This document shows positions 9,870 through 61,274 of a DNA stretch of 64,000 bases, piece after piece. Source of the DNA: Amphiscolops sp. MND2022 (lineage: Eukaryota); the NCBI GenBank assembly GCA_964187785.1, contig OZ076409.1:23376001-23440000 (forward strand), given 5' to 3'. How positions within the stretch are numbered: position 1 is the first letter of the stretch; each line of letters starts with the position of its first letter. The translations under genes were made by a program, and so were the position numbers. Below the pieces are notes generated by a model. The model was given only the letters and a program-made list of their open reading frames with translations, searched no databases and was not told the DNA's origin.

Positions 9870-10347
9870 GGTGGGGTTGTTTCAGATCGAAATTTTGTGT
9901 GATCGAAACGCGAGATCGAAAAAAGATCAAAAATTTTGAGATCGAAATGTTCCGTTTTTGCTAGGTTTTTGCAAGTGCAAAGCGTTTTGAAGCGATTAAA
10001 TTCTTTTAGGTACTTTTCTCACCTAATTGGTGTCATTTACGGTGTATGCACTCTCGCCCTCACCATCGCAAAGATCAACTTCCACTCTTATCACTTCGCG
10101 ATCTCCGTTCCAGCTAGGTCTTTGCTCGTGTTCGACCTCGCTTAGCTAGATGGTAACATAAGCGGCCCCAAGAGGCCGGGCGACTAGAGGAAATGGGGCC
10201 ACATCCGAGGGCCAAAAATATTGGTATTTGAAATTGGTAGTTGTTTGAAATCATTAATTGGATCTCATTTTCTTCGACCATTTTACATCGATCACAGTGA
10301 CAGATTACATACTCGCGCAAAATGATTCGATCCAATTATCAACCGCC
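9870..10347. mobile_element. MITE with GG...CC ends and 8-bp TSD (Merlin-like)
   Basis: Ends GGTGGGGTTG / CAACCGCC, flanked by ACTACTAC on both sides (inside a TAC microsatellite, so the TSD is weaker evidence). Subterminal GATCGAAA arrays; carries the shared core module at ~10020-10210. Confidence 0.6.
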
Positions 10348-33088: not shown

Positions 33089-34872
33089 TGTAAGGACCGG
33101 CTAGCGACGCACAGCTAGGAAGAGGGATAATGCCTTAAACAGGAGACCGTTGTCTTACTACATCGCTAGACACTAGTTTTTGATCCCAAAATGGTCTCCA
33201 AGGGTGACTTTTCTATCGTCTAAGGAGGCTTCTCTAATTAGAGCTCCGAAGCAGCGTGCCGGCACTCTCAAAGTCCGGACACGCTCCACAAGCCTGTAAA
33301 AACATTCCCTAATATTCCTAGCACGTTCCTACGACTTCCCACATATTTCCGAGGTCAAAAAAGGTATCTATCTGAAACACATTTTCTTTGGAGAATTAGA
33401 TCTCAAACGACCTAGAAGGTCAAATATCTTCCAAATACACAGAAATACCAGTAAAGAAGTAGCGATAATGCACAGGGATAAGCCTCAATTACATTGCAGT
33501 TTGTCGTTGATCCTCAACATCTTCCCTCTGGCACTACTCCGTCTTTTCGTGTGCTCTTCCAGCGAGATGACACAACACTCCGCTCGTCTTGTTTCTCTTT
33601 GGCATTTCTCGATTTTTCTTCACATTCTTGCTTTTTCTCAATATTCTTCCACGTGCTCTCTTCTTTGCTCTGTCTCCGCGTGGTTTCTTTTTTCGTTCAA
33701 GTTCTCGTACCTGCCAGGTCGCCATTTTTATTGTGCTATTTCGATACCGCACATTTCTAATTTTTCAACGAAATTTTGTCATGCCGGTGGCTGACGTGGT
33801 AAATAGTCAATTGGCTTAATGCCATTTGGCTTAAAGTCATTTGGCTTAATACAATTGGTCACTTGTCCTAATTTTTTAAAGCTAAGTGTCTCGGGTATTG
33901 GTCACTTGGCTTAAAGTCATTTGACTTAAAACCACTTAGTTTAAAACACGTGGCAGATTTTGTCGAATTTATCTTTATAACGTAGTCAGCGTATTATTAT
34001 AACATGCCATTTCAAGTACCCCTCGGATATGTCCCCATTTCCTCTAGTGCCTCGCGGCCCCTTGGGGCCGCTCATATTCCCATCTTGCTAAGCGAGGTCG
34101 AACAGGAGCAAAAACCTAGTGGGAACGGAGATCGCGAAGCGATCGTAGTGGGAGTTGGTCTTTGCGACGGTGAGGGCGAGCGTAGTGTACGCCTTTGTTC
34201 TAATTGCTTGGGTCTAATGGATTTAGATCTAACTGTTAGGTCTAACTTTAAGATCTAATTTTATCTAAAATACTTAGGTCTAACCCCTTTATGATCTAAT
34301 ATGTGTTCTGAAAGCGAAAATATAATGTGGGGCATATGCGATGTATGCACGCTCGCCCTCACTGTCGCAAAGACCAGCTCCCACGATGATCGCTTCGCGA
34401 CCTCCGTTCCCGCTAGGTCTTCGCTCCTGTTCGACCTCGCTTAGCAAGATGGGATTATAAGCGGCCCCAAGGGGCCGCGGGGGACTAGAGGAAATGGGGA
34501 CATATCCGAGGCACAATTTATACTTTATATCACTTTTTAGTTTTTGATCCTAATTGACCTATTTTTTCTCCGAAATTAGATCAAATTAGAAGAGATTTTT
34601 AGACCTGATTATTTAGATCAATTTATTCAGATCTCAGTTTTGCCCCCTCTCTTAGATCTATTTCATTAGACCTGATTCCACGTAGTCAGGGCGAGCGTGC
34701 ATACACCGCATATGCCCACAATTGATATTTACGTGAGTTGACTTTTTCATTCCGTGAGTTGGAATGGAGTTGGCTTAATTTTGTGGTCACTTGGCTGAAA
34801 ATTTTTAAGCCAAATGACAAAAAAATTAAGCCAAATGGTATTAAGCCAAGTGACGTAACCGCTGACGTTACA
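33089..34872 (-). repeat. 5' LTR of giant Gypsy, interrupted near its outer end by a MITE
   Basis: TGTAAGGACCGGCTAG at 33089. The LTR runs to GCTGACGT (33797) and resumes as GCTGACGTTACA at 34861-34872. Confidence 0.93.
33798..34860. mobile_element. MITE/non-autonomous DNA transposon, GG...CC ends, 8-bp TSD GCTGACGT (Merlin-like)
   Basis: TIRs GGTAAATAGTCAATTGGCTTAATGCCATTTGGCTTAA and rc GGTTACGTCACTTGGCTTAATACCATTTGGCTTAA; TTGGCTTAA arrays; inverted pair of core modules at 34021-34183 and 34349-34511. Confidence 0.9.
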
Positions 34873-35073
34873 TATCTTGCTAAGCGAGGTCGAACAGGAG
34901 CAAAGACCTGGCTGGATTGAAGTTCGCAAAGCGATCGTAGTGTGAGGTGACTTGTGCGACTGTGAGGGCGAGTGTGCATATACCGTAAATGACCCCACGT
35001 TTTTCCTTAGACGTCATCTTCATTCATTTTAGACCTTAGTTACAGTGCATGCTTTTAAATGCTTGGTCAAAAT

Positions 35074-35590
35074 GGAAACGACGTTTCGGCAAAAAAATTC
35101 GAGACGTTTTTGCAAATTTTCATGCCGAAACGTCCCGTATTATCTTGGTTTTGTTTTTGGTTTTCTACAAACTGGACCTAACCAGTAAGATAATATACCA
35201 GTTTGTAGAATTCTGAAATTTAAGAAAACCGATAAGACCATTAATGTAGGAATGATGCAAAGCATAAAGCGTGTCTCTGATATGTCCCCATTTCCTCTAG
35301 TGCCCCGAGGCCCCTTGGGGCCGCTTATATTCTCATCTTGCTAAGCGAGGTCGAACAGGAGCAAAGACCTAGCGGGAACGGAGATCGCGAAGCTATCGTA
35401 GTGGGAGCTGGTCTTTGCGACGGTGAGGGCTAGCGTGCATAAACTGGATATGCCCCACATATCATACGAAACGTTTCGGCAAATTTTTTTAGCCTGAGAC
35501 GTTTCGGCATATTTTTTTTGCCGAAACGTCCGCCGCCATGTTTTTGCCGAAACGTCCGCCGCCATGTTTTTGCCGAAACGTCCGGAATCC
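35074..35590. mobile_element. MITE, GG...CC ends, 8-bp TSD GTCAAAAT (Merlin-like)
   Basis: GTCAAAAT at 35066-35073 and 35591-35598. TIRs GGAAACGACGTTTCGGCAAAAA and rc GGATTCCGGACGTTTCGGCAAAAA; core module at ~35278-35440. Confidence 0.88.
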
Positions 35591-37194: not shown

Positions 37195-38010
37195 ATGATG
37201 TCTCTTGCGAAAAGAAGAGCTATCGAAGGCCCTCATGTTGGTAGCGGCAAAAAATACTGCAAAGATGAAGGAGCTATTGCAGAATCCTCTCAACGATTGG
37301 CACAACTCCGTGAATCATCCTTATTGTGGGATGATTTCAACAAGTCAGCTTTGGATTTGGCACAGTTCCTCTTGAGCAAATTGTTGGTGCGCGTTGTTGA
37401 TGGTTACATTCTCTCTGGAAAAATCGTTGAAACAGAAGCATACTCCGGTCACCCGGACGTTGCATCACACTCTTTCAAGGGTAAAACTGAGAGAAATAAA
37501 GCTATGTTCATGGCGGCGGGGACATGTTATGTCTATTATATTTACGGACGCCAAAACTGCATTAACGTATCCAGTCAAGAAGATGGAGGAGCTGTTTTAA
37601 TTCGAGCAGTTGAACCTATTGATGGCATTGATTCCATGGTCGCCAATAGAGGGAATTCTTTCCGCGAGGCTCCTGAAAGTACGAAAAAGAAATCATCGTT
37701 TTTAAGAAATTTAACGAATGGACCTGCTAAATTGTGTCAGGCAATGAGTATTACTAAAGACGATTTTAATTGCACCCACTTCGCGCCTAATTCAGTTTCC
37801 AACGACGGCAACGATTTCCTTGCAACCGAAAACGTAACTTTAAATCTTGAACTTTTGATTGCGAATCCTGACTGTGTGGAGAACCTACCGTTGGAGGACA
37901 TTGTTACTGCAACGAGAATAGGAATTGACGGAGCTGGAAAAGAAGCTGCAGCGCAGCCATTCCGGTTTTATATCAAAGACAATCCTTTCGTGAGTCACAT
38001 CAAGAAATAA
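37195..38010 (+). CDS. MPG: DNA-3-methyladenine glycosylase (AAG/MPG), apparently intronless
   Basis: Motifs GKIVETEAY, ASHSFKG, MFMAAGTCYVYYIYG, CINVSS, AVLIRAVEP, TNGPAKLCQAM, TRIGI. First ATG at 37195. Confidence 0.93.
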   Translation: MMSLAKRRAIEGPHVGSGKKYCKDEGAIAESSQRLAQLRESSLLWDDFNKSALDLAQFLLSKLLVRVVDGYILSGKIVETEAYSGHPDVASHSFKGKTERNKAMFMAAGTCYVYYIYGRQNCINVSSQEDGGAVLIRAVEPIDGIDSMVANRGNSFREAPESTKKKSSFLRNLTNGPAKLCQAMSITKDDFNCTHFAPNSVSNDGNDFLATENVTLNLELLIANPDCVENLPLEDIVTATRIGIDGAGKEAAAQPFRFYIKDNPFVSHIKK

Positions 38011-42829: not shown

Positions 42830-43241
42830 GTCGACTATAGTCATGGCTTTTCGTCAGTGTTTTTTTTTCGATACACCTGAAGTGACCAAAATAGTTCTAC
42901 CAAAAGTTCTACAAAATTTTAAATTGTACCTGTTGGCCCATCGAACAACCAAAAAGGTTTTCCCTTTTTCCGCGTAACATACAACACCGGGCGAGACTAA
43001 ATGGTCTCCCTCTCGAGTTTTTCGGCATTGTGGGACTTCTCCTCTTCATTTTTTTTGGATTTTGCGTAAGAATGGATGTTGAAAAATCCCAAAGGGTCCG
43101 CCCTTTCAGTTTTTTTACCGACATTGTGAGACTTTTTTTCATCAAAGTGTCCCCAATTCACCAATACTTTGGCACTTTGAAGTCCTTTTGCTATTTTTGA
43201 GCCTTGGATATGGCGCCGACTTGGGCCGGTCCCGGCTTGTT
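42830..43241 (+). repeat. Dispersed Helitron/Helentron-like repeat copy
   Basis: Ends GGCGCCGACTTGG-GCCGG TC CCGGC-TTGTT. Its 5' part recurs at ~44030-44280 and, inverted, at ~61300-61490. Confidence 0.55.
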
Positions 43242-44287
43242 TATAATCGACGCGGTTTAAGCGATAAGCTGAATGATGTTGACGGTTGCAAGAAATACGA
43301 TGCAAAGTTTCAAGCGTTTAAATCACTTGTTGCGATGACTTTTCAAATCACGATTTGATGCGTGACAATGAAGTACCTGAATATTACTGAACTTGTAAAT
43401 GTTGCTCAATGTTTTTGACGTTGGATCTGGAGATACTTTTGTTTTTTTTTATGCTCGGCTGGCAAGAATTTCGAATCCTTGGCGAAGCCTGGAATGTTCA
43501 GATCAGTCGCCAGATACTGAATTCATAAGACCACATTTTCATGAACGTGAATTAAGCACGCTTCGTGACAAGTTGATTTAATTTCATTCGAAACTGATTG
43601 TTTATACATCTATGGAACCTTCAGTTGCATATACTTCACATTAAACCATGCCGTATGTGAACTAATAGTGCTCATTGGCCTCGTTGTTGGGTTGCTTGAC
43701 CAATATCCATGGTTAAGAGTTCTTGATTTATTGACTACCAATAAATTCCAAACTAAATATATACCATCAAATCTTTCATCAGTAGTAGCACGAAGAAATT
43801 ACCATCGCCTCACAACCAAGAGAGTTCTAGCTATTGTTAGAGTCAACATTCCTTGCGCATAGTTCCTCTTTTCTTACTCTCGTCTGTTATTCTCTTTGAT
43901 CGGATTTTGAATCAATCGAGTTAGTAAATCTTTTTGGTACCGCTTCAAATTTTATTCTAATACATTGTAGGCAGAAACCTAAAATTGAAACTTGATGCAA
44001 TAATTTTTAGTCGGCGCTTCAGTCGGCGTGAAACGCGACTAATATAGTGATTTTTTTCAATCCACACGAACTGACCAAAATAGTTCTTGAAAGTTCTACA
44101 AAATTTTATGGTCCCAAATTGAATCATTTGGCCTAGCGAACTGAACCAAAAAGGTTGTTCCTCTTTTTCCGCGTAACATACAACACCGGGTCCCCTCTTT
44201 CAGTTTTTTCGGCATTGAGACTTTTTTCGGAATTTTTTTTCCACCAAAGGGTCCCTCTTCAACTTTTTTAATGTTTTGCGAGTCTTC

Positions 44288-44788: not shown

Positions 44789-46432
44789 ATGGGCGACATC
44801 TCCGATGACGAGAAGAAGGAGTTGATACACGAACTCCTGCTTCAGACTCCTCCGGGTGAGTTCAGCTCCACGTTCAATGACGTCAGGAGAATCGTGGACA
44901 ACGATGCCTTAATGAAACAGTGTGCCAGGTCTTACATGGAGTACTGGGTAGAACAACAGACCCCTGTCACAGTCGAAGGCGAGTCTGTGTGTCTCTCGAG
45001 AGAAGCCCGCCAGCCAGACGGTTCCTTCTTAGCTCCCGACTCCAAGAAATTATTCACTCTAGACCCTATGCGCAAGGAGACAGCTGTGGTTGGGGATTCC
45101 ACCAGCACCGACCACGAAGCTTTCCGCTCCTCACTTGCCGAAAAAGTGAAGAATTACGTGAAAGATCACTATACCAACGGATCTGTCAGCGTGCTGGCTA
45201 AAACCAATGCTCAAGATTTGCCCGAATTGTGTATCGCTATTGAATCTCACCAGGCATGTGCAAGATATAACCTGGCTTTTGCTCAACTGCTTGCCATAAT
45301 TGCAAATCAGGGTATCTTATTTTTGATTTCGATGTACTTGTTTTGGTATGTCGAAATGAGCTAGTAGTTCAGCTATTTGCGACTTGAACAGTTCCAAAAC
45401 AAGGGTACCAAAATATGACGACAGTTGATTCTGGTGGCGAAAAACTGCCAGGCGCGTGATCTCTGTTTTGCATATGAATTACAAATATTACAAGGGCCAG
45501 AATTGCCAAGATTCCTTTACTTCGGAAACTAGTGAAAGTTGTAAAGTCCATATCACCGTCACGTGCAAGTCGCAAGATCTGGGAACTTGCTTGCGGGGAT
45601 ATGTATCGTAATGGTAGTTTCGAGAAATTCGAAAAACCACTTTGATTTTTAAAAAATTCAAAGCAAGTTTGTAGCGTTGACTGTTTTCACATTTTTTCAA
45701 TTCTAAAAACTTCGTGAAACAACGGCAAGTTGCCTCTGAGGCCCTGATTTTGAATGAAGTAAAATGTTATCTCTCGCCAACCAATGGTAATGAAGTGTCT
45801 AAATATATTATTATTCAAGTTTCTTTGACAATATTCATCAGTTAACCGAAAGGATTAGCAAGGTCAAAGAGGATCCGGAACGACACATTCAGTGTCAATA
45901 ATGTTCGATCCTTTAGAAAAAGGTAAAAACCTACGTTTTGTTTCGAAAAACAGGAAAAAACTTCAATTTAAAAGAGAATTTTTAGGGGCTTCTTGGTATG
46001 TATGGTCTAAGTAATACCGTGTATCATTCTCACATGCCTGGGTGTGTTTAGTACATGCTCAACAATTTTTACACAGCCAACTGGCGCGAGCTGTGGAATG
46101 TGGTGGTGGATCAATCTAGCGGATCTGCTGAACTGAAGGGCGTGATCAAAGTGCAGGTCCATTACTACGAGGAGGGCAACGTGCAAAAGATGTCGAGAAA
46201 GCAGTTTTCTTCCACAGTGTCTTTTACCAGCGAGGAGTCGTTAGCGGCTAACGTTGCAGACAGAATACAGGAAATGACGAATGAATATCAACGATGTATC
46301 GTGAGGATATACGACACGTTCCAGTCGGGCACTTTCAAGCAACTTCGAAGGGCTCTGCCCATCACACATTCCAAAATAAACTGGGATCAAATGGCTTCCT
46401 ACAAAATTGGAGCCGAGTTGAAAAACCAGTGA
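44789..46432 (+). CDS. CAPZA: F-actin capping protein subunit alpha; exons 44789-45253 and 46052-46432
   Basis: PPGEF...FNDVR, YVKDHY, IESHQ|YMLNNFYTANWR, VQVHYYEEGNVQ, FKQLRRALPIT..KINW...YKIG. Confidence 0.95.
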
Positions 46433-47940
46433 CACAGTTGAAATTGTGACATGAAATATAATAGATTTGTTATATGAGTTGAATACAATTAATTCGAATA
46501 ATCGACCCAGTTTTTACCATCTTGGTACAAACATTTTGCCTTGGTACAAACAAAAATATTTCCATCTCATCCAGGAAAAGTTTCGACCATGACTAAGAAC
46601 GATATCATGCTATCAAGATGGTAATAGTTGCTGTGATGATTAATTATGGTATTACGTCAAATTGCTTTTGGGTTTGAAAAAAGTTGGATTGATCAGGGAT
46701 TGTGTTCAGCAATTTGAGAATGCTTGCGATTTACGAGGTCAATCATGTTACCCTTAAAAGGTGCTTCTACTGCAACTATACTGGAGCGTGTTGGGATCGA
46801 TCAGGTCAACTTGGTTGACTCAAATTGAGCCAAACCGATGATATGTAATTTTTGATATTGCAAAATCTTGGAAACTTTCCTGTTGACTTGACCGCGAACC
46901 TTGTATAATTTCGGAATTCATTGCTTTTCTTGATAATTTTTCGCGATGCACACTTTTGCCTAATATATTTCCTTTATCTTGTTCAACAATAAGATCGTAT
47001 TCCATAAAAGATCACGGTAAACAAACAAATAATGCTGCTTCTTTTCCTTCTCCTGTGCCCCTAGAACTACTCTTTCCAAAGTGGGCCATTTGAATTGTCA
47101 GTATCCTTGTTTTATGTAATTTTTGATTATTAGATATTTTCCGGGATATTGCTTTATGACTGTTAACCCATCCACTTCAAAAAGCAAGTTTTCGGCTCAT
47201 TTTTTTGGTACGTTCAGCCGGAATGTTTGAGAAGAAATTCCAAAAAATCCCAAACCTGTTTCAAATGCCAAATCATATTTCAAACGATCGATATTTTGAT
47301 TTTGAGGGAAAGATTTTTTTCCAATCTTCGATAGTGTTTTTTAGCATTTCTCAGTTCAAAGTCGCCCGCTTGAAAATCTCCATTTAAGCCCCTGTTCCCA
47401 TAGCCCCTCTCAACCTCAAAATCCTGCGAATTTAGATTGTGTTGATTAAACAAATCGATTATTTCTACGTATGGCTTTGCAAAATTTGTTACGCAACTGA
47501 TGCATTTATTACGTGATGTGTTCTTCTAGCTATTACAACATCTAAACGAAATGGTGTTCAGCAATCAACTGTGTTGATAAATTACCTGTCGTTAAGTCTT
47601 CTTATGCTTGTTGTAAAATAATGATTTAAAATCAACTAGAATTGAATTCTATTTCCGTTATTGCTTTTTGATTCTAGACAACCACCACATAGTTATCACA
47701 TCGTTTTCAAACGAGCATGCAATTTTTGCATTTTTTCAATATTCCGACAAATCGTGCGTTGAATCTACTAATCGAGAAGCTGGTAGAATTATTTTTCCAT
47801 TGTTAAAAAATTTTCGAGTTAATGTTTACTCGAGCCTGACAAGGTTTTAATTTGCGAATCATTTGTAGATAAAACTTCTGGACGAGATTTCTTTTCATAA
47901 TGAGAGTTGCTATTTAATCTTCAAATTGACGTGGAATGTC

Positions 47941-50900
47941 TGCACCAGTGTAATGAGATACCATAGTATTTCATAAGGGATGTGCAAAAATCATTTCGCT
48001 GCTCCAGGAAGGTATATTGTCTTCGTTGGAAAGTGGTACACTGCTAATCACAAGACAAGATACATCGCATTTGGGTCTTTCGAGCATCGAAAACTCTGGT
48101 ATCTTTCTTGCCAGTAAAAGAATCTTTTTAGCTATTTCGTTTAATTTCCATTAACATGTGCACTAGTGTAATGAGATACCCTAGTATTTCATAAGGGATG
48201 TGCAAAAATCATTTCGCTGACCCTCGAAGGTGATCGTCTTCGTTGGAAGGTGGTACATTGCTAATCACAAGATAACATTTACCCTCGCATTTGGGTCTTT
48301 CAAGTAATGAATACTCTTGTAGAGATTTTATTTTCTTTAGATAAATTTTTTTTGGCTGCTTCCATTAGCTTCCGTTGACTTATGCACTAGTGTAATGAGA
48401 TACCTTAGTATTTCATAAGGGATGTGCAAAAATCATTTCGCTGCTCCAGGAAGGTATATTGTCTTCGTTGGAAAGTGGTACACTGCTAATCACAAGTTAA
48501 CATACCTCGCATTTGAGTCTTTCAAGCATTGAATACTCGGGTATCTTTTTTCCATTAAAAGAATCTTTTTGGCTAGTTCGTTTAATTTCCATTAACATGT
48601 TCACTAGTGTAATGAGATACCTTAGTATTTCATAAGGGATGTGCAAAAATCATTTCGCTGCTCCAGGAAGGTATATTGTCTTCGTTGGAAAGTGGTACAC
48701 TGCTAATCACAAGACAAGATACATTGCATTTGGGTCTTCCGAGCATCGAAAACTCTGGTATCTTTCTTGCCAGTAAAAGAATCTTTTTAGCTATTTCGTT
48801 TAATTTCCATTAACATGTGCACTAGTGTAATGAGATACCTTAGTATTTCATGAGGGATGTGCAAAAATCATTTCGCTGCTCCAGGAAGGTATATTGTCTT
48901 CGTTGGAAAGTGCTATACTGCTAATCAGAAGATAACATACATCGCATCTGGGTCTTTCGAGCATTGAATACTCTGGTATCTTTCTTGCCAGTAAAAGAAT
49001 CTTTTTAGCTATTTCGTTTAATTTCCAGTAACATGTGCACTAGTGTAATGAGATACCCTAGTATTTCATAAGGGATGTGCAAAAATCATTTCGCTGCTCC
49101 AGGAAGGTATATTGTCTTCGTTGGAAAGTGCTATACTGCTAATCACAAGATAACATACATCGCATTTGGGTCTTTCGAGCATTGAATACTCTGGTATCTT
49201 TCTTGCCAGTAAAAGAATCTTTTTGGCTATTTCGGTTAATTTCCAGTAACATGTTCACTAGTGCAATGAGATACCTTGGTATTTCATAAGGGATGTGCAA
49301 AAATCAATTCGCTGCTCCAGGAAGGTATATTGTTTTCGTTGGAAAAAGGTACACTGCTAATCACAAGATAACATACATCGCATTTGGGTCTTTCAAGCAT
49401 TGAATACTCTGGTATCTTTTTTCCATTAAAAGAATTTTTTGGCTATTCCGTTTGATTTCCAGTAACATGTGCACTAGTGTAATGAGATACCTTAGTATTT
49501 CATAAGGGATGTGCAAAAGTCTTTTCGCTGCTCCAGGAAGGTATATTGTCTTCGTTGGAAAGTGCTATACTGCTAATCACAAGATAACATACATCGCATC
49601 TGGGTCTTTCGAGCATTGAATACTCTGGTATCTTTCTTGCCAGTAAAAGAATCTTTTTAGCTATTTCGTTTAATTTCCAGTAACATGTGCACTAGTGTAA
49701 TGAGATACCCTAGTTTTTCATAAGGGATGTGCAAAAATCATTTCGCTGCTCCAGGAAGGTATATTGTCTTCGTTGGAAAGTGCTATACTGCTAATCACAA
49801 GATAACATACATCGCATCTGGGTCTTTCGAGCATTGAATACTCTGGTATCTTTCTTGCCAGTAAAAGAATCTTTTTAGCTATTTCGTTTAATTTCCAGTA
49901 ACATGTGCACTAGTGTAATGAGATACCCTAGTATTTCATAAGGGATGTGCAAATATCATTTCGCTGCTCCAGGAAGGTATATTGTCTTCGTTGGAAAGTG
50001 CTATACTGCTAATCACAAGATAACATACATCGCATTTGGGTCTTTCGAGCATTGAATACTCTGGTATCTTTCTTGCCAGTAAAAGAATCTTTTTGGCTAT
50101 TTCGGTTAATTTCCAGTAACATGTTCACTAGTGCAATGAGATACCTTGGTATTTCATAAGGGATGTGCAAAAATCAATTCGCTGCTCCAGGAAGGTATAT
50201 TGTTTTCGTTGGAAAAAGGTACACTGCTAATCACAAGATAACATACATCGCATTTGGGTCTTTCAAGCATTGAATACTCTGGTATCTTTTTTCCATTAAA
50301 AGAATTTTTTGGCTATTCCGTTTGATTTCCAGTAACATGTGCACTAGTGTAATGAGATACCTTTGTATTTCATAAGGGATGTGCAAAAATCTTTTCGCTG
50401 CTCCAGGAAGGTATATTGTATTCGTTGGAAAGTGCTATACTGCTAATCACAAGATAACATACATCGCATTTGGGTCTTTCGACCATTGAATACTCTGGTA
50501 TCTTTCTTGCCAGTAAAAGAATATTTCTGGCTATTTCGTTTAGTTTCCAGTAACATGTTCACTAGTGTAATGAGATACCTTGGTATTTCATAAGGGATGT
50601 GCAAAAATCAATTCGCTGCTCCAGGATGGTATATTGTTTTCGTTGGAAAAAGGTACACTGCTAATCACAAGATAACATACATCGCATTTGGGTCTTTCAA
50701 GCATTGAATACTCTGGTATCTTTTTTCCATTAAAAGAATCTTTTTGGCTATTCCGTTTGATTTCCAGTAACATGTGCACTAGTGTAATGAGATACCTTAG
50801 TAATTCATAAGGGATGTGCAAAAATCATTTCGCTGCTCCAGGAAGGTATATTGTCTTCGTTGGAAAGTGGTACACTGCTAATCACAAGTTAACATACCTC

Positions 50901-51460
50901 GCATTTGAGTCTTTCAAGCATTGATTACTCTGGTATCTTTTTTCCATCAAAAGAATCTTTTTGGCTTGTTCGTTTAATTTCCATTAACATGTTCACTAGT
51001 GTAATGAGATACTTTAGTGTTTCATAAGGAATGTGCAAAAATCGCATTTGGGTATTTCAAGCATTGAATACTCTGGTATCTTTTTTTCCATTAAAAGAAT
51101 CTTTTCGGCTGCTTCGATTAGTTTCCGTTGACTTACGCACTAGTGTAATGAGATACCTTAGTATTTCATAAGGGATGTGCAAAAATCATTTCGCTGATCC
51201 TCGAATATGATCGTCTTCGTTGGAAGGTGATACATTGCTAATCACAAGATAACATACCTCGCATTTGAGTGTTTCAAGCATTGAATTTTTTGGTATCTTT
51301 TTTCCATTAAAAAAATCTTTTTGGCTATTTCGTTTAATTTCCAGTAACATGCTCACTAGTGTAATGAGATACCTTAGTATTTCATAAGGGATGTGCATAA
51401 AAGATTTTCCTTCTCCGAAGGTTTCTCATCTTCACTGGAAGGTGGTTCATTGCACATCGG
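47941..51460. repeat. Tandem satellite, ~218-bp unit, ~16 copies
   Basis: CACTAGTGTAATGAGATACC anchor recurs at 48161, 48385, 48602, 48820, 49038, 49256, 49472, 49690, 49908, 50126, 50342, 50560, 50777, 50994, 51138 and 51353. Confidence 0.97.
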
Positions 51461-51838
51461 CCAACAACCTTACGATAAGTTGGCAAAACATAGCCCACTT
51501 TCTCATTTGGAATTAGAAGTTCGGGCACAGTAATCAATGCTGAGAAACGTTTAGTCTAAAAAGTTCAAATTCAATAACTAAAATTTGTTGTTGAGTTTTA
51601 TTTTAATTTAATTTAATATTCCATGATTTGACGCATGAACACTTTTATAAATACTGATGAAAACTTTTCATGATTATTGAATGACTTTTAGCGCGAAATA
51701 CTTTGACTCATTGTTTTTCTTGAAATCTTTGATATTAGTCACTTTGATCAAAAAGAGATTAATTCCGTCCAAGAATTTTTGCTATCAAGCTATAGCGTAA
51801 ACAAAGAGCAACTGCCAGTGCAGCAGAATTCTACATTT

Positions 51839-51859
51839 TGGTGACCCTCTCGACGTGAT
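51839..51859 (+). promoter_or_regulatory. PBS, tRNA-Trp type with 3-nt insertion
   Basis: TGGTGACCC-TCT-CGACGTGAT versus the tRNA-Trp complement TGGTGACCCCGACGTGAT. Confidence 0.8.
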
Positions 51860-51888
51860 ATTGGTTAGATCGTTCCTAATTCTTTCAT

Positions 51889-52494
51889 ATGGTACGAAAA
51901 AGTATTTACCTGAAGAACAGCTCAAAGTTTTTGATTCTGTCAGATTCACTTCTGAAAATGTTCAAAACAATTTCATTTGACGTTTTGTCTGTACCTGGAG
52001 CTCGCCCTCAAGATCTTTGGGATTTTCTACCACCCTTCAATAGGTTTGAGAAGATCATATTATTTGTGGGGGGTAACGCTTTAGAGAATTTTCAATCAAA
52101 AAACGGCACTTTTCGATCAGCTCAAGAACCAATTGAAGTTGCAACAGAAATATTTGAACTAGCTCGAGCACTTCTTTTGCGCACCTTAACAGTTTTCATT
52201 GTTGGAGTACCACCTCGAGGTACTGAAGAATTACAGCATAAAGTTTTGCAACTGAACGCTGAGCTTAACGCTTTTTGCAACTCACAGAAGCAACCCATAG
52301 TTTTTGTTGGCATCTCGCATTACCTTTACGACTTGAAGCATATATCCAAAGATCTCTGTCACTTTGAAAAAGGAGCTTTCGCAAAAATTCACAAATTACT
52401 TAACGAAAAGATATTGAGAAAGAAATTCCAAAAACCTTGTCACTGCAAAACAGTTCATACTTTTTGGAAGGAGTATACTACATATCCTTTCTAA
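51889..52494 (+). CDS. SGNH/GDSL esterase-fold protein, stand-alone ORF inside the BEL element upstream of gag
   Basis: Block I LILSDSL, block II VPGAR, block III LFVGGN, VFIVGVPPR, block V DLCH; C-terminal CHCxxxH. Confidence 0.8.
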   Translation: MVRKSIYLKNSSKFLILSDSLLKMFKTISFDVLSVPGARPQDLWDFLPPFNRFEKIILFVGGNALENFQSKNGTFRSAQEPIEVATEIFELARALLLRTLTVFIVGVPPRGTEELQHKVLQLNAELNAFCNSQKQPIVFVGISHYLYDLKHISKDLCHFEKGAFAKIHKLLNEKILRKKFQKPCHCKTVHTFWKEYTTYPF

Positions 52495-52677
52495 CCAGAT
52501 ATTCCCTCATTTGTCTTCCACTAATTTAAGTGTCCTGCCTGCAAGGGGCTGTGCTCACTTAAATTCAATCGCCTTTTTTGTCGTTCCTTTTCGTTGACCT
52601 GCCTGCAAGGGGCTGTGCTCAATCGGAAAAACGATAATAGCTTCCTCCTCATTTGAATAACATAGAACAGGACTACA

Positions 52678-55600
52678 ATGTCCGATGAAACACGAAGACT
52701 CCTAGCCTCTCGAAAGGCTCATATGGGCGTTGTTACTCGAAAGGGCAACGAGTTCGACAAAATTAAAACGAAGCCCATTGAAGAAATTACAGCGGATGAT
52801 AGATTACTAGCAGAAACGCTTTTAGAATCACTGACTGAAAAAATAGCTAAAATTGGAGAAATCAATCTTAAAGTTCTGGATGCTACTGAAACTTCTGACG
52901 AGGCCTTAGAAACGGAAATTTTCAAACAAGATGAAATTGAAACTGAGGTAAAATCGTTGATGAAAAGCATCCAAAAGTGGATTACAGAACATACATCTGA
53001 TGTTGACGAAACATCATCCCTTGGCTCAAACCACCGTGACAATGTTCGTCTTCCTCGAATTGAACTTCCCTCCTTTGATGGTCAGTATAAAGATTGGAAA
53101 ACATTCTTTGATATGTTTAAAGGAACTGTGCACGAACAGCAATCTTTACCCAAAGTACAAAAGCTTTACTATCTCAAAGGTGCTTTGAAAGGAGACGCTA
53201 AACGTGTTCTTTCTCATTTGCCTACAACTGAAGCAAATTATGATGCAGCCATTCAACTCTTGAAAGATCGATATGATAATGAGTTTCTGATCACGAAAGC
53301 GCATTTAAATAACATTTTCAAAATTGATTCGATGAAGAAAGACAGTGCAGACAGCTTGAGGAAACTCATTGGTATTTTTAATGAGAATGAGATGGCTCTT
53401 AGTGCCTTGGGAATTGACACAAAAAGTTGTGACTTCGTTTGGGTGCATATACTCTCCGAAAAACTGGATTCTGAAACTGCTCGTGAGTGGCAGTTGAGTA
53501 ATGCTGATGGAAAATTGCAATCAATGGAGCAATTGAGAAAGTTTCTCGAACGTCGTGCTCGTGCATTAGAGGCATCTGGCCGATCTTTAGAAACCACTCG
53601 TGAGTTGACGCGAGAAAAAAGGGCTGAAAGAGAAACCTGTCAAAGTTATCAGTCCAATTCAATGTCTTGTCCTGTGTGTAAAAAGGCACATCGGATATAC
53701 GCCTGTCCAGCTTTCTTGTCTTTATCACTTAATGAAAGACATCAAAGGATTAAAGAACTTAGACTTTGCTTCAACTGTCTGAAAGAAGGTCATAGTATCA
53801 AGAGTTGTTCCTCGAAAAAGTTATGCCAAACCTGTAACAAAAAACACAACACATTGTTACATCGGGTTGATACTGCCTCAGTTCACTTTACTGAAAATGC
53901 CCATACCACAAATGACGATCCTCAATTTACAGGACATCAGCAGGAGTCAAGTTACACGACAGTTCTTCCTACTGCTATTGTTTCTGTAATTGATTCACAA
54001 AATAAACTTGTACAATGCCGGGCTTTATTGGATAGTGGCTCGCAACTTAGCTTTATCACTGAAAAATTGGCTGATGCATTGAATCTAAACAAAGATGATG
54101 TAAACTTGAACCTGAGTGGTATCGGCGGCAAGGCAAAAGATGTTAAAGCTGGTCGTGTCAAACTTGTTTTGAAATCTGGATCGAAACAAGTCAATGTGTC
54201 TGCATACATTTTGAAACAACTAACAAATTGCATACCGAGTAAACTTCTGAACGTTCCTACAACACCTACGAATATCTCTTTGGCTGATCCCAATTTCAAT
54301 GTCTCCAAACCAGTGGACATGATATTAGGTGCGGATGTCTTCGAAAAATTGATGGAAAATCAACGCCGGGAAATTTCTCCTGGTTTGTTTTTACGTAAAA
54401 CGATTTTTGGATGGGTGTTGATTGGAAAACAGAACGAATCAACAAATTCTTTCATCTCTTGTCATGCCTCCATTGACGAAACTTTGAGAAAGTTTTGGGA
54501 AGTTGAGACTCTACCTCAAAGAAAGTTGCCAACTGAAGAAGAATTGCTATGTGAGAAAATCTTTCAAGAAACCACAAGGGTTGTCGACAATCGTTTCGTA
54601 GTCAAGTTGCCTTTCAAAAAAGATGCGATTTTAGGTGAAAGCTTAACTCAAGCTCAACGCAGATTCAGTTCATTGGAACGTCGGTTGGACACTAATCCCG
54701 AATTGAGAAAACGGTATGGTGATTTTGTTGATGAATTTGTTTCACTTGACCACATGGAAGTCGTTCCTGAAAATGAAATCAACAAACCTGATAGTGATGT
54801 TTACTATCTACCTCATCATTGTGTCTTCAAAGAAGACTCAACAACAACGAAGTTACGTGTAGTCTTCGATGGTTCTGCGAAGACTTCGAATGGACTTTCA
54901 CTGAACGAAAGTCTCATGGTTGGACCAGTCGTTCAGAATGATCTGTTTACTATTCTGAATCAATTCCGTTGCAAGCCTATAGCGCTATCAGCGGACATTG
55001 CCAAAATGTACCGTCAAGTCGAACTAGATGCACCTGACAAAGACTTTCATCGTCTTCTGTGGCGCAGCAAAAAAGATGAAAAAGTGAAACATATGCGAAT
55101 GAAGCGAGTTACCTACGGAATTGCTTCTGCTTTCCACTCCACTCGCTGCCTAAAGGAAGTTGCTAATCGGACAAATAACCATACAGTCGCTGACGCACTC
55201 AATAATTCATTTTACGTTGATGACTTTCTCGGTGGTGCTAACACCATCACAGAAGCGCGTAATTTGATGAAAGACTTATGTACTGAGCTTTCCGCCTTCG
55301 GGTTTGAGCTCAGAAAGTGGACTTCAAGTCACCCGGAATTAACAATGGAGCTACCCCTTGAACTCCGAGAAACATCAGATGAACTTGCGCTTTTTTCAGA
55401 AGAATACAAAATAAAAGCACTTGGCATCTGTTGGAAACCCAACACTGACGAGTTTGCGTTTTCAATAGACTTATTTCCTGTCGAACAGCTGACAAAAAGA
55501 ACGCTTCTCGCCGACTCTTCAAAAGTTTTTGACCCTATTGGCTGGATCGCACCAGTCATTATCGCCTTCAAGTGCCTTATCCAACAAACATGGATTGAAG

Positions 55601-57744
55601 GACTTTCATGGGACGAGAAACTACCGGTTCATATTGCAAATGATTGGATGGAACTACGCACAGGTTTAGATAAACTTAACGAATTTCGGATTCCTCGCTG
55701 TGTTGTCCCGAGTCAAATGCATACAAAACAACTTCACGTTTTCTGCGATGCATCGGAGAAGGCCTATGCAGCAGTTGTGTATTTACGCACAGAAGATGCA
55801 GACCAAATTATCCGAGTATCGCTTCTGACTGCCAAAACTAGAGTATCACCTGTAAAACAATTATCAATGCCGCGGTTAGAACTTTGCGCCGCGCAACTTG
55901 GTGCAACATTACTGAATACCATGAGGCATATACTTGATATACACGATGTTTTCGCTTGGAGTGACAGCACCATCGTTCTCAATTGGCTCTCAAAGCTACC
56001 TCGAACTTGGAATACCTTCGTTGCAAATCGAGTAGCAAATATTCAAGAGATTCTGCCTCGAAATCATTGGGGTCATGTACCGACCGAGGATAACCCTGCA
56101 GATATTGCTTCGCGAGGTGCAACAGCTTCCCAACTATTTGAGAACAAACTTTGGTGGACAGGGCCGAATTGGCTAGAAAGTAATACAACACATTGGCCTC
56201 ATTATAGGCCCACTAATGAAGAAAATCAAGAGAAACGAGAACCAAAAAGCGTTCTCACTCTCACTATTACTCCTCATTTCATGGACGTGGATCGTTTTTC
56301 TAAATTGAAAACATTAGTTCGAGTTTTTGCATTCATACAAAGATTCATCAACATTCTGAAAAAGGATCGCAGCAATTTCGGAACACCTCTAACAGCTACT
56401 GATTTATCTAACGCCAACTTTCGAATGATTTCCTTTGAACAAAAGAGATATTTCTCTGAAGAATTCAATTTGTTGAAAAACCAAGAAGAGCTTCCAAAAT
56501 CTTCGAACATGCGGAATTTGACACCTTTTTATGATGCCGAGTTTGATGTTCTGCGAGTATGAGGTCGAATGGGCAATTCTAACTTCAACGAGTTGAAGAA
56601 GTTTCCACTGCTTATCCCAAAAGGCTCACCTCTTGTTCCTCTCATAATTAGACACTTCCATGAAGAGACTCTTCATGGTGGGGGCCTTTTGACAAATGCT
56701 GCTATCAGAGAGCAGTACTGGATCATTGGTGCTAAACCGCAAATCAATAAAGTAATAAAAAATTGTGTCAAATGCTGTCGTTACTCTTTGAAACCACCGT
56801 TCCAGCTAATGGCTGATCTACCAGCCGAACGAGTCACACAGGCCAGACCCTTCTCTCAATGTGGTCTCGATTTTGCTGGACCAATAATGACTAAATTACC
56901 TGATTCTGCATGTCAAAAAAGATATGTCGCTTTGTTTGTGTGCTTTATAACTAAAGCTATACATCTTGAATTAGTCTCAAATTTGACGAAAGAAGCCTGT
57001 ATTCTTGCATTGAAACGATTTTCGGCTAGGCGCGGTACACCAACAAAACTTTTTAGTGACAATGGATCCAATTTCATTGGAGCTAGAAATGACTTAATCA
57101 AACTTCAAGAAATCCTCTCAAGCAAGGAAGAGAATTCTTTGTTTGTGTATGCTAATCAAAAAGGTTCTCAGTGGATAACTATTCCCAGCAGATCTCCACA
57201 TTTCGGTGGCTTATGGGAAGCGGGTGTGAAAAGCATGAAGCGACACTTACGCCGGATTGTTGGTCAGCAGAAATTAAGCAATGAAGAATTATTGACAGTT
57301 CTGACACTGATTGAAGCCATTTTGAATTCCAGACCATTAACTCCCCTCTCCAATGACCCTAATGACTTAGCACCGCTGACTCCTGCACATTTTTTAATTG
57401 GTAGTTCTTTCAATCCCGTACCAACATCCAATCTTCAGTTGCCGCTGAACACTAGATTTCGTCTTATACAACAAATTCAGAAGGACTTCTGGGATGCTTG
57501 GAAACGAGACTATCTTGTAACTTTACAAGTACGGAAAAAATGGTTCACTAACGGGCCAGAAATTAATCGTGACGATTTGGTCCTGATAGCTGATGATGAC
57601 CTCAAACCGCTCCAATGGAAAACTGGTCGTGTAGTGGAACTTTACTCCGGAAACGACGATATTACAAGAGTTGTTAAGCTGAAAACTTCCACCGGAGAAA
57701 TGATTAGACCAGTTATAAAACTGAGAAAACTTCCAATTGAATAA
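52678..57744 (+). CDS. BEL/Pao Gag-Pol polyprotein with one in-frame nonsense codon (56560-56562)
   Basis: LPRIELPSFDG Gag; three Cys/His knuckles; LLDSGS protease; RT YLPHH, KLRVVFD, ADIAKMY, YVDD; RNase H FCDAS, PRLEL, WSDS, NPAD; integrase LDFAGP, SDNGSNF, WEAGVK. LRV*GRM corresponds to the usual LRVGGRL. Confidence 0.96.
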
Positions 57745-60200
57745 CTTTGAATTCTTTCCATAATTGATGTTGATCAAGGGGTGCGGTATGTTGAGTTTTA
57801 TTTTAATTTAATTTAATATTCCATGATTTGACGCATGAACACTTTTATAAATACTGATGAAAACTTTTCATGATTATTGAATGACTTTTAGCGCGAAATA
57901 CTTTGACTCATTGTTTTTCTTGAAATCTTTGATATTAGTCACTTTGATCAAAAAGAGATTAATTCCGTCCAAGAATTTTTGCTATCAAGCTATAGCGTAA
58001 ACAAAGAGCAACTGCCAGTGCAGCAGAATTCTACATTTGTTTCTTTCTGCTTTTGGTCGACGATGTTACTTTTTCAACAAGAGGAAGCAACGTCGAAATA
58101 GGAATGACTCTCGTATCAACCTTTATCGAATAGTGATTCTCATTTAGCAAACTTGAAAATGCCCCCCGGCTAAAGCTCAGAAGACGCGAAAATCCTTCAA
58201 AAGTTTGTTTTCAAAAATCATTACTATTGTAAAGAAAAAGTCGGAACTCTCCCGACCGGAACAAGGCGAAAGCTGATTTCTGAGTAATTTGCAAAGGGCA
58301 CTCTTCTGGAAAATAGTTTTTGCGAAATGAAGTCGACGAGACGTCGACAGTGCAGAAAAACTTTATGAGCGAACTCGTAAGTTGAAACTTAGGAAACTAT
58401 ATTTTTATATTGAAGTGCGACTCAAATGTGCTACAGATGACGCTACAAGTAGACATTAGTGAAAAATAAATGAAACTAGGCTGTCGCGCCCTCACTGCTA
58501 TGACGAATTGATCTCGCTTAACGATGCTTGTCACGTGCGTGAATTATTGTAAGTTCCAAATTCATAGTCACTTATTCTTCCAAAAGTTCTTCATAATCTC
58601 AGGAATATTACTGAGCCCCGAAGGTTTTAAAGTCTAATGATGTTTTAGTTTTCGCTGCAAACCTTAAATGAACTTAAACGACCCGACTTTTTCTGCTTTC
58701 TGAAATGTTTTCAGAAAAAAGTCAAGAACCACCTTTGAATAACTAAATTTGCCTAAAGTTGTCAATGAAAGAACATTGTTTTATTATTGACTTGGCAAGG
58801 CTAAGCAACCCATCTTGAATCTGTCGTATTTGGCTTTAATTGAACAGACAGATTGTCTTGTCAAGGTATTCACCGTCTTGTTGGTGGTATACTCTCTAAC
58901 TCCCTTCACCAGTTCATAGATGTCTCGCCCTATTCGTAGTAGCTTGTGATAGCCTGCAATTTCAGCAGTCCAGGTAACTGGCCTTGTAAATTCTTGTATA
59001 AGTAGTTTGTAATGACGATTTTTTGTCAAAGCGTTTTGCATAGTGTTTCGGGGCATTTGTTTTTTTGATGATTTTTCTGCATGTTTCGTACTCTATTATA
59101 TCCACTGTTTGTTTCTCGTCCTGCATCGGGTTTACATTTCTTTCGACAAAACATTTGAGGCTGTTAGCTTTGATTGGTCGTTTCCGGTTTTTTGTTTTCT
59201 CTCCGCCTTACCGTTTGTTTCTTTGTTGATGTTCCCATAGCCAGAGCTGATAAGATCTTCCGTTCAGTGTTTTCTTCCACCTTAATCTATGAGCAAATGG
59301 ATTCAGTATGTTGTGAGGGATAGACAAGCTTCTCTACCTAGCTTGCTCAAAAAATGTTCTTTTCGTTCTACCGACGTTCTTATGTTTTAGGTCTTGAATT
59401 CAGAAATGGCCGTTTTTGAGGTTAATTCTGTGGTCATGGTCAATTCTTTAAAGGGTTATTGTTTCAATTTTCCAATATGTCGAATTTACTTCGTTTCGAA
59501 TTCGAATGTCCTGCATGTTGATTATTCATTTTATGTAATGTTTTCAGTGCTGCGTCGCATTTCTGGCTCCATGTGTCCGCAGACTTTGTCTATCCAGCTT
59601 TGAAAGGACTCAATATCGCTATTCTTCCATGGTTTCGTCGTGGCCTGCTTCGACAACTTTACAATTATTGCCTGTTGTCGTTTACTGAAGATGGTGATTT
59701 TTACTTGGTCTGATCTTCCCCCATAACTTTCCTGCTCGTTTTTGTCTTGGTCGCCTTGTCATGATCCGAGCTAAGATCAGTAAGATAGAAAGAATAAGTG
59801 AGAAAAAACTGCAGCAAGCGGAGGACATTTTGAGAGGAATGTTTTTTGGAAAAGGTCATCAAATGTTCGCAAAAATGATTGTCGTGTAATGAGATGCTTT
59901 TAAAGGTTATGGAAAAAAGTTCTCAAATGAGAGTCCTCACTCTAATTAGACCACTGTTTGCAAATTTTACGTGTAAAATCTACTGAGTATTCGAATGTAC
60001 CACAAAGTTTGACGTTTAAGTTAAAAAAAACTGGAGCCAGAGGGGGCTTTGGGTCTTTCGGCACTTTGCGACTGACGCTTTTCAGTCGAAAAGGCAGAAT
60101 TGTCCCACTTTTTTGCTGTTTTCAATTACGGAAAAGCTTTTTTAAGAGCCTAATGGTGCGTATGTCGACAACAACATCAAAAAAATTTGAAAGTCACAGA

Positions 60201-60321: not shown

Positions 60322-61274
60322 CTTTTTTGAAAATTTTTAAATGTCACCAAAGGGCCCCCCTTCATTTTTTTGATATTTTGCAACAAATGCATGTTAAAGA
60401 ATCCCAAATGGTCTCTCCTTTACCGCGCAATTCCGTCCCTTTCGGGTTGGATTTTCGGGTACTGTAGAAGGGAATACTTGACACTTTGGAATCCTTTTGC
60501 TATTTTTGAGCCTTAAGCGGGGCGCCGACTTATGCCGTTCCCGGCTTTTTAATCTAATCTTATCATCTTGAGTAGCAATAAGCTATAGAATTATTTTGAA
60601 TTATCAGGGTAACAGAAACATTTTTGAGGTCATATCCGAAGTAAATTGCGTTTTACTCAGGAGGTGGATGTTCGAAAATATTGAGCTGTACCCAAATTTT
60701 TAACGTTATATCCGAAGTAAATTGTGCTTTACTAAGGAAGAGGGGGAGGTTTGGACTTAATGCGCTATATTCAAGTTTTCGACGTTATATCCGAAGTAAT
60801 TTAAACTTAAACTTTACGTTCTTTGGGTTTTCTGGGTACTGTGGAAAAGAGTACTCGACGCTTTGGTCAAAGACAATATTCGATTCTAGGAGAATCTCAC
60901 ACATTGAAAAAAAATGAAAAAAGTCGCACCGTGTCGAAAAAATTTTTAAGGGGAGACCCTTTGATACCATATTTTTGAGATACAGTAAATACTTTAAAAA
61001 GCTCAAAGAGAGTGGCCTTTAGCCTCTTTGGAATTCGTCCATAGAAAACAAGCCGGGAATGGCCCAAGTCGGCGCCCCGCTTAAGGTTCAAAAATAGCAA
61101 AAGGATTCCAAAGTGTCAAGTATTCCCTTCTACAGTACCCGAAAATCCAACCCGAAAGGGACGGAATGGCGCGGTAAAAGAGAGACTCTTAGGGATTCTT
61201 TGACATCCATTTGTTGCAAAATATCAAAAAAATGAAGGGGGCCCTTTGGAGACATTTAAAAATTTTCAAAAAAG
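60322..61274. repeat. Inverted pair of ~225-bp Helitron-like repeat 3' ends (60322-60547 and 61050-61274)
   Basis: The arms are near reverse complements, each ending in GGCGCCGACTT..GCC hairpin CGGCTT. Confidence 0.8.

Follow-up and report, generated by a model that had tools for sequence, protein, structure and literature searches.

The capture of an SGNH esterase by a mobile element is in itself known, from LINEs, Penelope-like elements and the Gypsy elements of rotifers. The esterase of the LINE ZfL2-1 is active and slow, with a low turnover, and it binds anionic lipids, according to the relevant passages of PMC3905857. In the Gypsy elements of rotifers, SGNH ORFs lie 3' of pol, and they are also found in Penelope-like elements (passages of PMC5408684 and PMC6431247), the rotifer ORF3s being, it is said, typically expressed from spliced RNA (PMC5408684), and an SGNH ORF is described in a Helitron of fish (PMC4021074). 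Belpaovirids contain gag, pol and at times env, with LTRs of 0.2-1.2 kb, a total length of 4.2-10 kb and a primer site of 18 nt complementary to tRNA-Arg or tRNA-Gly (ICTV profile, PMC8742986). An env-gag-pol order is described in two mites (PMC13524379). In the literature searched, mainly open-access main texts, we did not find a BEL element with an esterase, though Repbase or Dfam may contain such an entry; the word esterase is absent from the accessible text of the BEL/Pao survey PMC3118150 and from that of PMC2774666, and the accessible text of PMC12451622 contains a species renaming only. In rice tungro bacilliform virus, a stretch of about 895 nt without other AUGs lets scanning reach the third ORF (PMC3542737).

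The window analysed here, the whole of a 64-kb stretch of DNA, contains a complete BEL/Pao LTR retrotransposon at 51589-58035 with a separate ORF for a predicted SGNH esterase ahead of gag. Against the literature searched, the BEL/Pao case and the 5' layout with its scanning signature appear to be new; the original prediction likewise knew of no description of an SGNH ORF upstream of gag in a BEL element. We propose, with a probability of roughly 0.62, that the element represents a young BEL/Pao lineage keeping a predicted SGNH esterase 5' of gag, that it is bicistronic by way of leaky scanning, and that the esterase is likely cytoplasmic.

The element measures 6,447 bp (Table 1), and its insertion is recent because the two LTRs are identical at 247/247 nt. 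Together with the 5-bp target duplication and the Pao-type Pfam families, this bears out the earlier view of a young BEL/Pao element. The 5' LTR contains a TATA-like motif at 51646 and five ATGs, which would weigh against scanning if they lie in the leader. The primer-site-like motif may be of the tRNA-Trp type, and no tRNA gene was found within the 64-kb window. In gag-pol, DUF1759 (E 4e-38), Peptidase_A17 (E 7.6e-51), DUF5641 (E 6e-30) and DUF1758 were above their Pfam cut-offs, RVT_1 and rve were further families, and the motifs of protease, RT and integrase were identified along with three zinc knuckles. Of the Gag relatives listed, most have PF05380, and each has at least one of PF03564 and PF05380. 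The LTR length of 247 bp and the element length fall within the ranges of the Belpaoviridae, the Pao-type domains accompany protease, RT and RNase H followed by integrase, in that order, and a purine tract precedes the 3' LTR. Only 44 nt separate the end of pol from the 3' LTR, too short for an env gene, and neither ORFs nor Pfam revealed env in the element. Gag-pol is interrupted where its RNase H region gives way to integrase, by an in-frame stop (56560-56562), and the copy in the window, as assembled, therefore cannot make the full Gag-Pol; the stop may be a genuine mutation or an assembly error.

Table 1. Features of the BEL/Pao element, in coordinates of the 64-kb window
Feature	Position	Strand	Remarks
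Target-site duplication, left copy	51584..51588	.	5 bp; the same 5 bases stand beside both LTRs
5' LTR	51589..51835	+	247 bp, TG...CA, identical to the 3' LTR
Primer-binding-site-like motif	51839..51859	+	starts with TGG, 3 nt past the 5' LTR
ORF of predicted SGNH-fold hydrolase, stand-alone	51889..52494	+	201 aa; first ATG past the primer site, pyrimidine at -3
AUG-depleted stretch, ORF body and spacer	51892..52677	+	one ATG, in frame, at 51958
Spacer hairpin 1 (predicted)	52523..52565	+	-14.2 kcal/mol; duplicated apical motif, core at 52534
Spacer hairpin 2 (predicted)	52579..52636	+	-18.7 kcal/mol; shares the apical motif (core at 52598) but not the basal stem
BEL/Pao gag-pol, single frame	52678..57744	+	ATG with a purine at -3; contains three zinc knuckles plus protease, RT, RNase H, integrase
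Purine-rich tract ahead of the 3' LTR	57776..57788	+	read from sequence
3' LTR	57789..58035	+	identical to the 5' LTR
Target-site duplication, right copy	58036..58040	.	matches the left copy

The rest of the window is rich in repeats. A tandem array of a 218-bp unit (47887-51416) stops some 170 nt short of the BEL element, and another, with a 146-bp unit made of 51-52-bp subunits, extends from 1 to about 6000. A Gypsy-type LTR element of about 19.5 kb occupies 14230 to about 33800 on the minus strand; its LTRs are 98% alike over 588 nt, its gag-pol is broken, and six ORFs of 165-273 aa past the integrase have no Pfam match. Along its 5' leader, roughly 3 kb long, AUGs are scarce on the coding strand, with two ATGs between 32756 and 30814. 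Long inverted repeats at 60324-61273 and 34021-35460 (227 and 208 nt, 89% complementary), of which dispersed copies were seen at 10024-10178 and 43169-43252, look like small non-coding DNA transposons. Two host genes were recognized on the plus strand, a methylpurine-DNA glycosylase in one ORF (37195-38010) and an F-actin capping protein alpha with at least two exons (44789-46432). No second SGNH ORF was found in the window, and the ORF at 18381-19136, considered as a relative of the esterase, showed no detectable kinship (hhalign probability 0.2).

As had been claimed, the 201-aa ORF is intact and separate from gag-pol: it is open in its own frame, stops 183 nt upstream of gag, and has its ATG 50 nt from the start of the primer-site-like motif and about 30 nt from its end. 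The protein carries S18-D19-S20, G37, G61-G62-N63 and D155-x-x-H158, which places Ser20, Gly37, Asn63, Asp155 and His158 in blocks I, II, III, V and V as tabulated, with the GDS and GGND patterns, in a section of PMC10792757. The original prediction of a full set of SGNH blocks holds for these five residues; block I departs from GDS in starting with Ser rather than Gly, and in block III an Ala follows the Asn, the usual Asp being missing. Sequence searches with the ORF identified no family: the best Pfam match had an E of 0.038, to an unrelated family, and phmmer and hmmsearch against the PDB gave no matches. A first structure model, built from a 14-sequence alignment, had a pLDDT below 50 at residues 143-201 and was superseded by one built from 44 sequences, with a pLDDT of 92. 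With this predicted model, VIA-align gave a Z of 18.0 to a sialic-acid esterase (rmsd 2.5 over 164 residues), all matches listed being SGNH-type proteins by title, and the best Foldseek match was a PAF acetylhydrolase (E 4.5e-7). ESM features had a similarity of 0.94 to GDSL clusters, with families on 22-56% of the cluster members. The ORF is thus predicted to encode an SGNH-fold protein, the structural check that the earlier claim called for. Sialate O-acetylesterase, PAF acetylhydrolase and bacterial GDSL proteins were tied as fold matches at 13-18% identity, and the fold therefore points to no particular substrate. The ZfL2-1 esterase (4C1B) was absent from the fold matches listed, which excludes nothing. 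The model is a single soluble alpha/beta domain with no membrane anchor; the sole hydrophobic peak, at residues 88-106, is borderline (Kyte-Doolittle 1.65) and lies inside a helix and a strand of the predicted fold.

A protein search of ENA and Logan sources returned 18 clusters with 102 records at 57-99% identity to the window esterase, in line with the expectation of a BEL lineage with a conserved 5' SGNH accessory gene. We aligned 70 relatives, of which 50 span all five catalytic positions, and these residues are intact in 42 of the 50; the eight exceptions include short forms that stop just past the Asp as well as single substitutions. In 44 sequences, down to 22% identity, G37, N63, D155 and H158 are at least 90% conserved. 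The designation 'catalytically complete' therefore stands for the residues only, and on this pattern the protein is probably an active enzyme. A role that needs no catalysis seems unlikely to us, whether as a scaffold that binds RNA or membranes in the manner of the OSK domain of Oskar or mainly as an upstream ORF that dampens Gag-Pol output. Such a role would fit a basic protein (pI 9.5, with 9.3-9.8 in five near relatives), the presence of OSK among the fold matches (Z 13.9), the non-canonical residues in blocks I and III and the low turnover of the LINE esterase (PMC3905857), but the S, G, N, D and H are retained over 57-99% identity, four of them far beyond it, and OSK has lost its serine, in the account given by PMC10792757, whereas the window esterase retains Ser20.

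The link between the esterase and BEL elements extends beyond the window. Of 14 distinct contigs listed for the 59%-identity esterase cluster (15 of its 20 members), six recur, matched by size, among the 13 of the BEL Gag-Pol cluster P0069 (15 of 53 members), a matching that shows a contig shared by esterase and Gag-Pol, not adjacency. Among the contigs listed, three other esterase clusters had none in common with P0069, and an unrelated BEL cluster used as control, P0102, had none in common with any esterase cluster. In the same 59%-identity subfamily, three proteins (P0060, P0063 and P0064) have a 20-residue N-terminal read-through over the leader, aligning to the window from 51862 onward, and in the 67%-identity subfamily two (P0049 and P0135) read through at the C-terminus into the spacer. 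The window family and the 59%-identity family are 62% identical in the esterase, compared with 53% in Gag, 52% in the protease, 70% in RT, 59% in RNase H and 61% in the integrase, so the esterase is constrained as much as the pol domains. A separate 5' SGNH gene appears to be a trait of this BEL lineage. No relatives were found in viral contigs; in metagenome contigs, P0153 had no match and a profile alignment of relatives had one locus. An esterase-Gag fusion was sought among relatives and longer proteins and none was found, which is weak evidence.

The strongest new evidence concerns the translation of gag-pol behind a 201-codon ORF, on which, as on the stop at 56560-56562, the original prediction was silent. 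From the esterase start to the gag start (786 nt), 1 ATG is observed against 9.3 expected from dinucleotide shuffles, and only 4 of 20,000 shuffles had one ATG or none. The density in gag-pol is 20 ATGs per kb. Within the ORF there are no out-of-frame ATGs where 5.4 are expected, a result reached in 3 of 20,000 random synonymous recodings, and the opposite strand has 13, these counts covering the window copy only. Selection on the protein does not explain this loss since it cannot remove out-of-frame ATGs. The spacer of 183 nt has none either. The single ATG, at codon 24, is not common to the sister copies listed: residue 24, which is Arg in 18 of the 70 aligned relatives, is almost always one of Arg, Lys, Glu, Asn and Ser, and internal Met occurs twice in the 12,368 residues of these relatives. 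In an unfiltered sliding control over the whole window, 153 of 2,468 segments had at most one ATG, the longest ATG-free stretches being in the satellite array at 1-6 kb. In the non-satellite control, the number was 2 of 132, and both fall within the neighbouring Gypsy-type element's 5' leader, on its coding strand, which would also be a region that ribosomes scan. At the esterase start, position -3 is C and position +4 is G, and the gag start has A at -3; how the two contexts rank would depend on the preference of the host.

These observations suggest, with good confidence on our part, that Gag-Pol is translated by leaky scanning. The full-length RNA would likely be bicistronic: some ribosomes would skip the start codon of the esterase and scan about 790 nt further to the gag ATG, and both proteins would be made from one RNA in a set ratio. 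A simple motif scan gave no GT[AG]AG donor upstream of the ORF and only a single donor-like site (52218) and a single acceptor-like site (52043); splicing may nonetheless occur. Alternatively, the esterase could be translated and ribosomes come to gag without linear scanning, whether they reinitiate once past the esterase stop, shunt, or enter internally at the spacer hairpins. The ATG-free spacer fits such non-linear routes, as do the two predicted hairpins with a duplicated apex just upstream of gag, whose motif seems to be kept in the 67%-identity subfamily. We nevertheless consider these routes improbable, as they need no AUG loss in the 603-nt ORF body, yet all three frames are depleted there in the window copy, the relatives are nearly devoid of internal Met, and Rfam gave nothing at its gathering score. 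Splicing, reinitiation and internal entry need no cleared ORF body and leaky scanning would, which is why leaky scanning is favoured.

The spacer hairpins have an apical motif in common and differ in their basal stems. Folding over the whole spacer is no more stable than that of shuffled sequences (z -0.77), and the Rfam scan gave two matches only, both under the gathering score. The tails that P0049 and P0135 gain by read-through each contain twice a motif matching the duplicated one, which is absent from the other proteins collected. Both predicted hairpins sit in the path of scanning ribosomes, which counts against scanning. As a guess, they could serve as an RNA signal in cis, most likely for packaging and otherwise for translation.

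The scarcity of Met extends to a larger group of SGNH proteins. A profile search gave 186 matches in all, and Met content was taken from the 150 listed: internal Met makes up 0.36% of residues in 15 near relatives, while the share is 0.26% for the 109 members of a wider family of stand-alone proteins and 1.68% for the 26 remaining matches (Fisher P 2e-18, a value overstated by the relatedness of the sequences and the many fragments). The wider family, P0143-P0284, is large and Met-poor; its proteins stand alone at 190-215 aa, often start with MRYH or MRFH and have a Cys-rich tail, and several are multicopy (clusters of 11, 24 and 62 members). Six related stand-alone SGNH proteins (P0172, P0176, P0177, P0183, P0198 and P0200) have a normal Met content (1.55%), three of them with clusters of 2-4 members; they are predicted not to be in a scanned position. 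It is conceivable, if rather doubtful, that the more than 100 Met-poor SGNH representatives (at 50% identity, many being fragments or frameshifted) all precede a leaky-scanned capsid gene and that the esterase is a required membrane-acting replication enzyme. If this were true, the window element would belong to a radiation of bicistronic retroelements that has so far gone undescribed, and would be the simplest system in which to ask why unrelated retroelements repeatedly gain the SGNH fold.

In a 44-row tree (midpoint root, some long branches), the near family forms one clade (98/95), to which the metagenome relative L001 is sister (96/93). The wider Met-poor family makes up a clade of its own (99/99) whose tie to the near family is weak (85/62), and multidomain ORF1-like esterases branch apart. 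L001 (85-633, 34% identity) has a GT-AG intron at 213-277, and another donor-like site stands at 631. Its 161 residues include three internal Met, and its frame appears to break in a run of A; it is possibly a cellular donor or a domesticated copy. A cellular donor of the esterase gene is plausible from these relationships. The position of the intron-bearing L001 would also suit a host gene that was captured once and carried along neutrally. This we regard as extremely unlikely, since the ORF is still open with its catalytic residues retained, the esterase is as conserved between families as the pol domains, and AUGs are depleted. The apparent near-complete removal of AUGs over about 790 nt argues that the esterase gene is worth keeping ahead of gag.

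As to what the kept gene does, the esterase would likely act in the cytoplasm, at the site of particle assembly. By analogy with the ZfL2-1 esterase and given the basic surface (pI 9.5), we tentatively propose, with less than even confidence, that this small basic protein is an esterase for acetyl or short-acyl groups, binding anionic membranes and aiding the placement, assembly or trafficking of particles in the cell. The original prediction had envisaged membrane targeting, for which the same analogy and basic surface speak, or cell-to-cell spread without Env; the latter found no support in a single soluble domain with its borderline hydrophobic peak inside the fold. That the esterase stands in for Env, letting particles exit or enter cells, has some attraction in an element without env: an Env-like function was raised for the rotifer GDSL ORF3s (PMC5408684, PMC6431247), and in MDG1 elements accessory ORFs upstream of gag drive cell-to-cell spread (bioRxiv 10.1101/2025.03.14.642691, in the part consulted). 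We find it very unlikely here, as the predicted model has no membrane anchor and no Gag fusion was found among the proteins searched, the MDG1 factor, unlike the esterase, has about 70 aa and a hydrophobic domain at its centre (bioRxiv 10.1101/2025.03.14.642691), and the rotifer paper itself, in its discussion of GDSL ORFs without such domains, disfavours an Env-like role (PMC5408684).

BEL/Pao elements become the fourth carrier of SGNH esterases, after LINEs, Penelope-like elements and rotifer Gypsy elements. The finding alters no general principle. Its form in the window is convenient to study: the domain is single, small and unfused, a full Gag accompanies it, and young copies are many. The loss of internal Met also offers an inexpensive marker, readable from sequence, by which to find further accessory genes placed upstream in retroelements.

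Compared with the Belpaoviridae, the window element is typical in LTR size, length, single gag-pol, domain order, Pao-specific Pfam families and purine tract, and differs in having a non-env enzyme gene ahead of gag and no env. The ORF1p esterases of CR1/L2/RTEX and Penelope-like elements, such as that of ZfL2-1, are likewise SGNH proteins with an intact active site and a basic surface, encoded upstream of RT. The ZfL2-1 esterase, however, is one domain of a coiled-coil ORF1p that replaces Gag (PMC3905857), whereas the window esterase is a single 201-aa domain, inside LTRs and beside a full Gag. Multidomain esterases are distant from it (E 3e-7 and weaker, one at 7e-10), and a search of longer proteins for multidomain relatives gave one match at 25% identity, which is weak evidence. 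The sORF1 and sORF2 of the MDG1 group resemble the window ORF in lying before gag in an env-less LTR element, on an RNA that is unspliced and full-length in MDG1 and would be so in the window element; they belong to a Gypsy group, are very short and include one FAST-like membrane protein and no enzyme, as reported in the part of bioRxiv 10.1101/2025.03.14.642691 consulted. In place of the 70-110 aa or so and the membrane-spanning segment of sORF2/FAST-like proteins, the window ORF has 201 aa and a soluble predicted fold. The GDSL ORF3s of the rotifer elements Vesta (Gypsy) and Athena/Terminon (Penelope-like) are, like the window ORF, separate SGNH ORFs with intact catalytic residues (PMC5408684). 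Vesta is also an LTR element without env; its ORF3 is 3' of pol in a Gypsy element, whereas the window ORF, in a BEL element, is placed 5' of gag and bears a scanning signature (PMC5408684, passages on ORF3). For translation the closest parallel is rice tungro bacilliform virus, which has in common with the window element a long AUG-poor stretch, here one in-frame ATG in 786 nt that listed sister copies do not share, and a capsid/RT polyprotein downstream; the weak upstream start of the virus may have a counterpart in the esterase start, with its C at -3 but G at +4. The virus is a pararetrovirus of plants that has a shunt leader and, upstream, two ORFs of unrelated kind, and leaky scanning has been shown there (PMC3542737), whereas for the window element we infer it.
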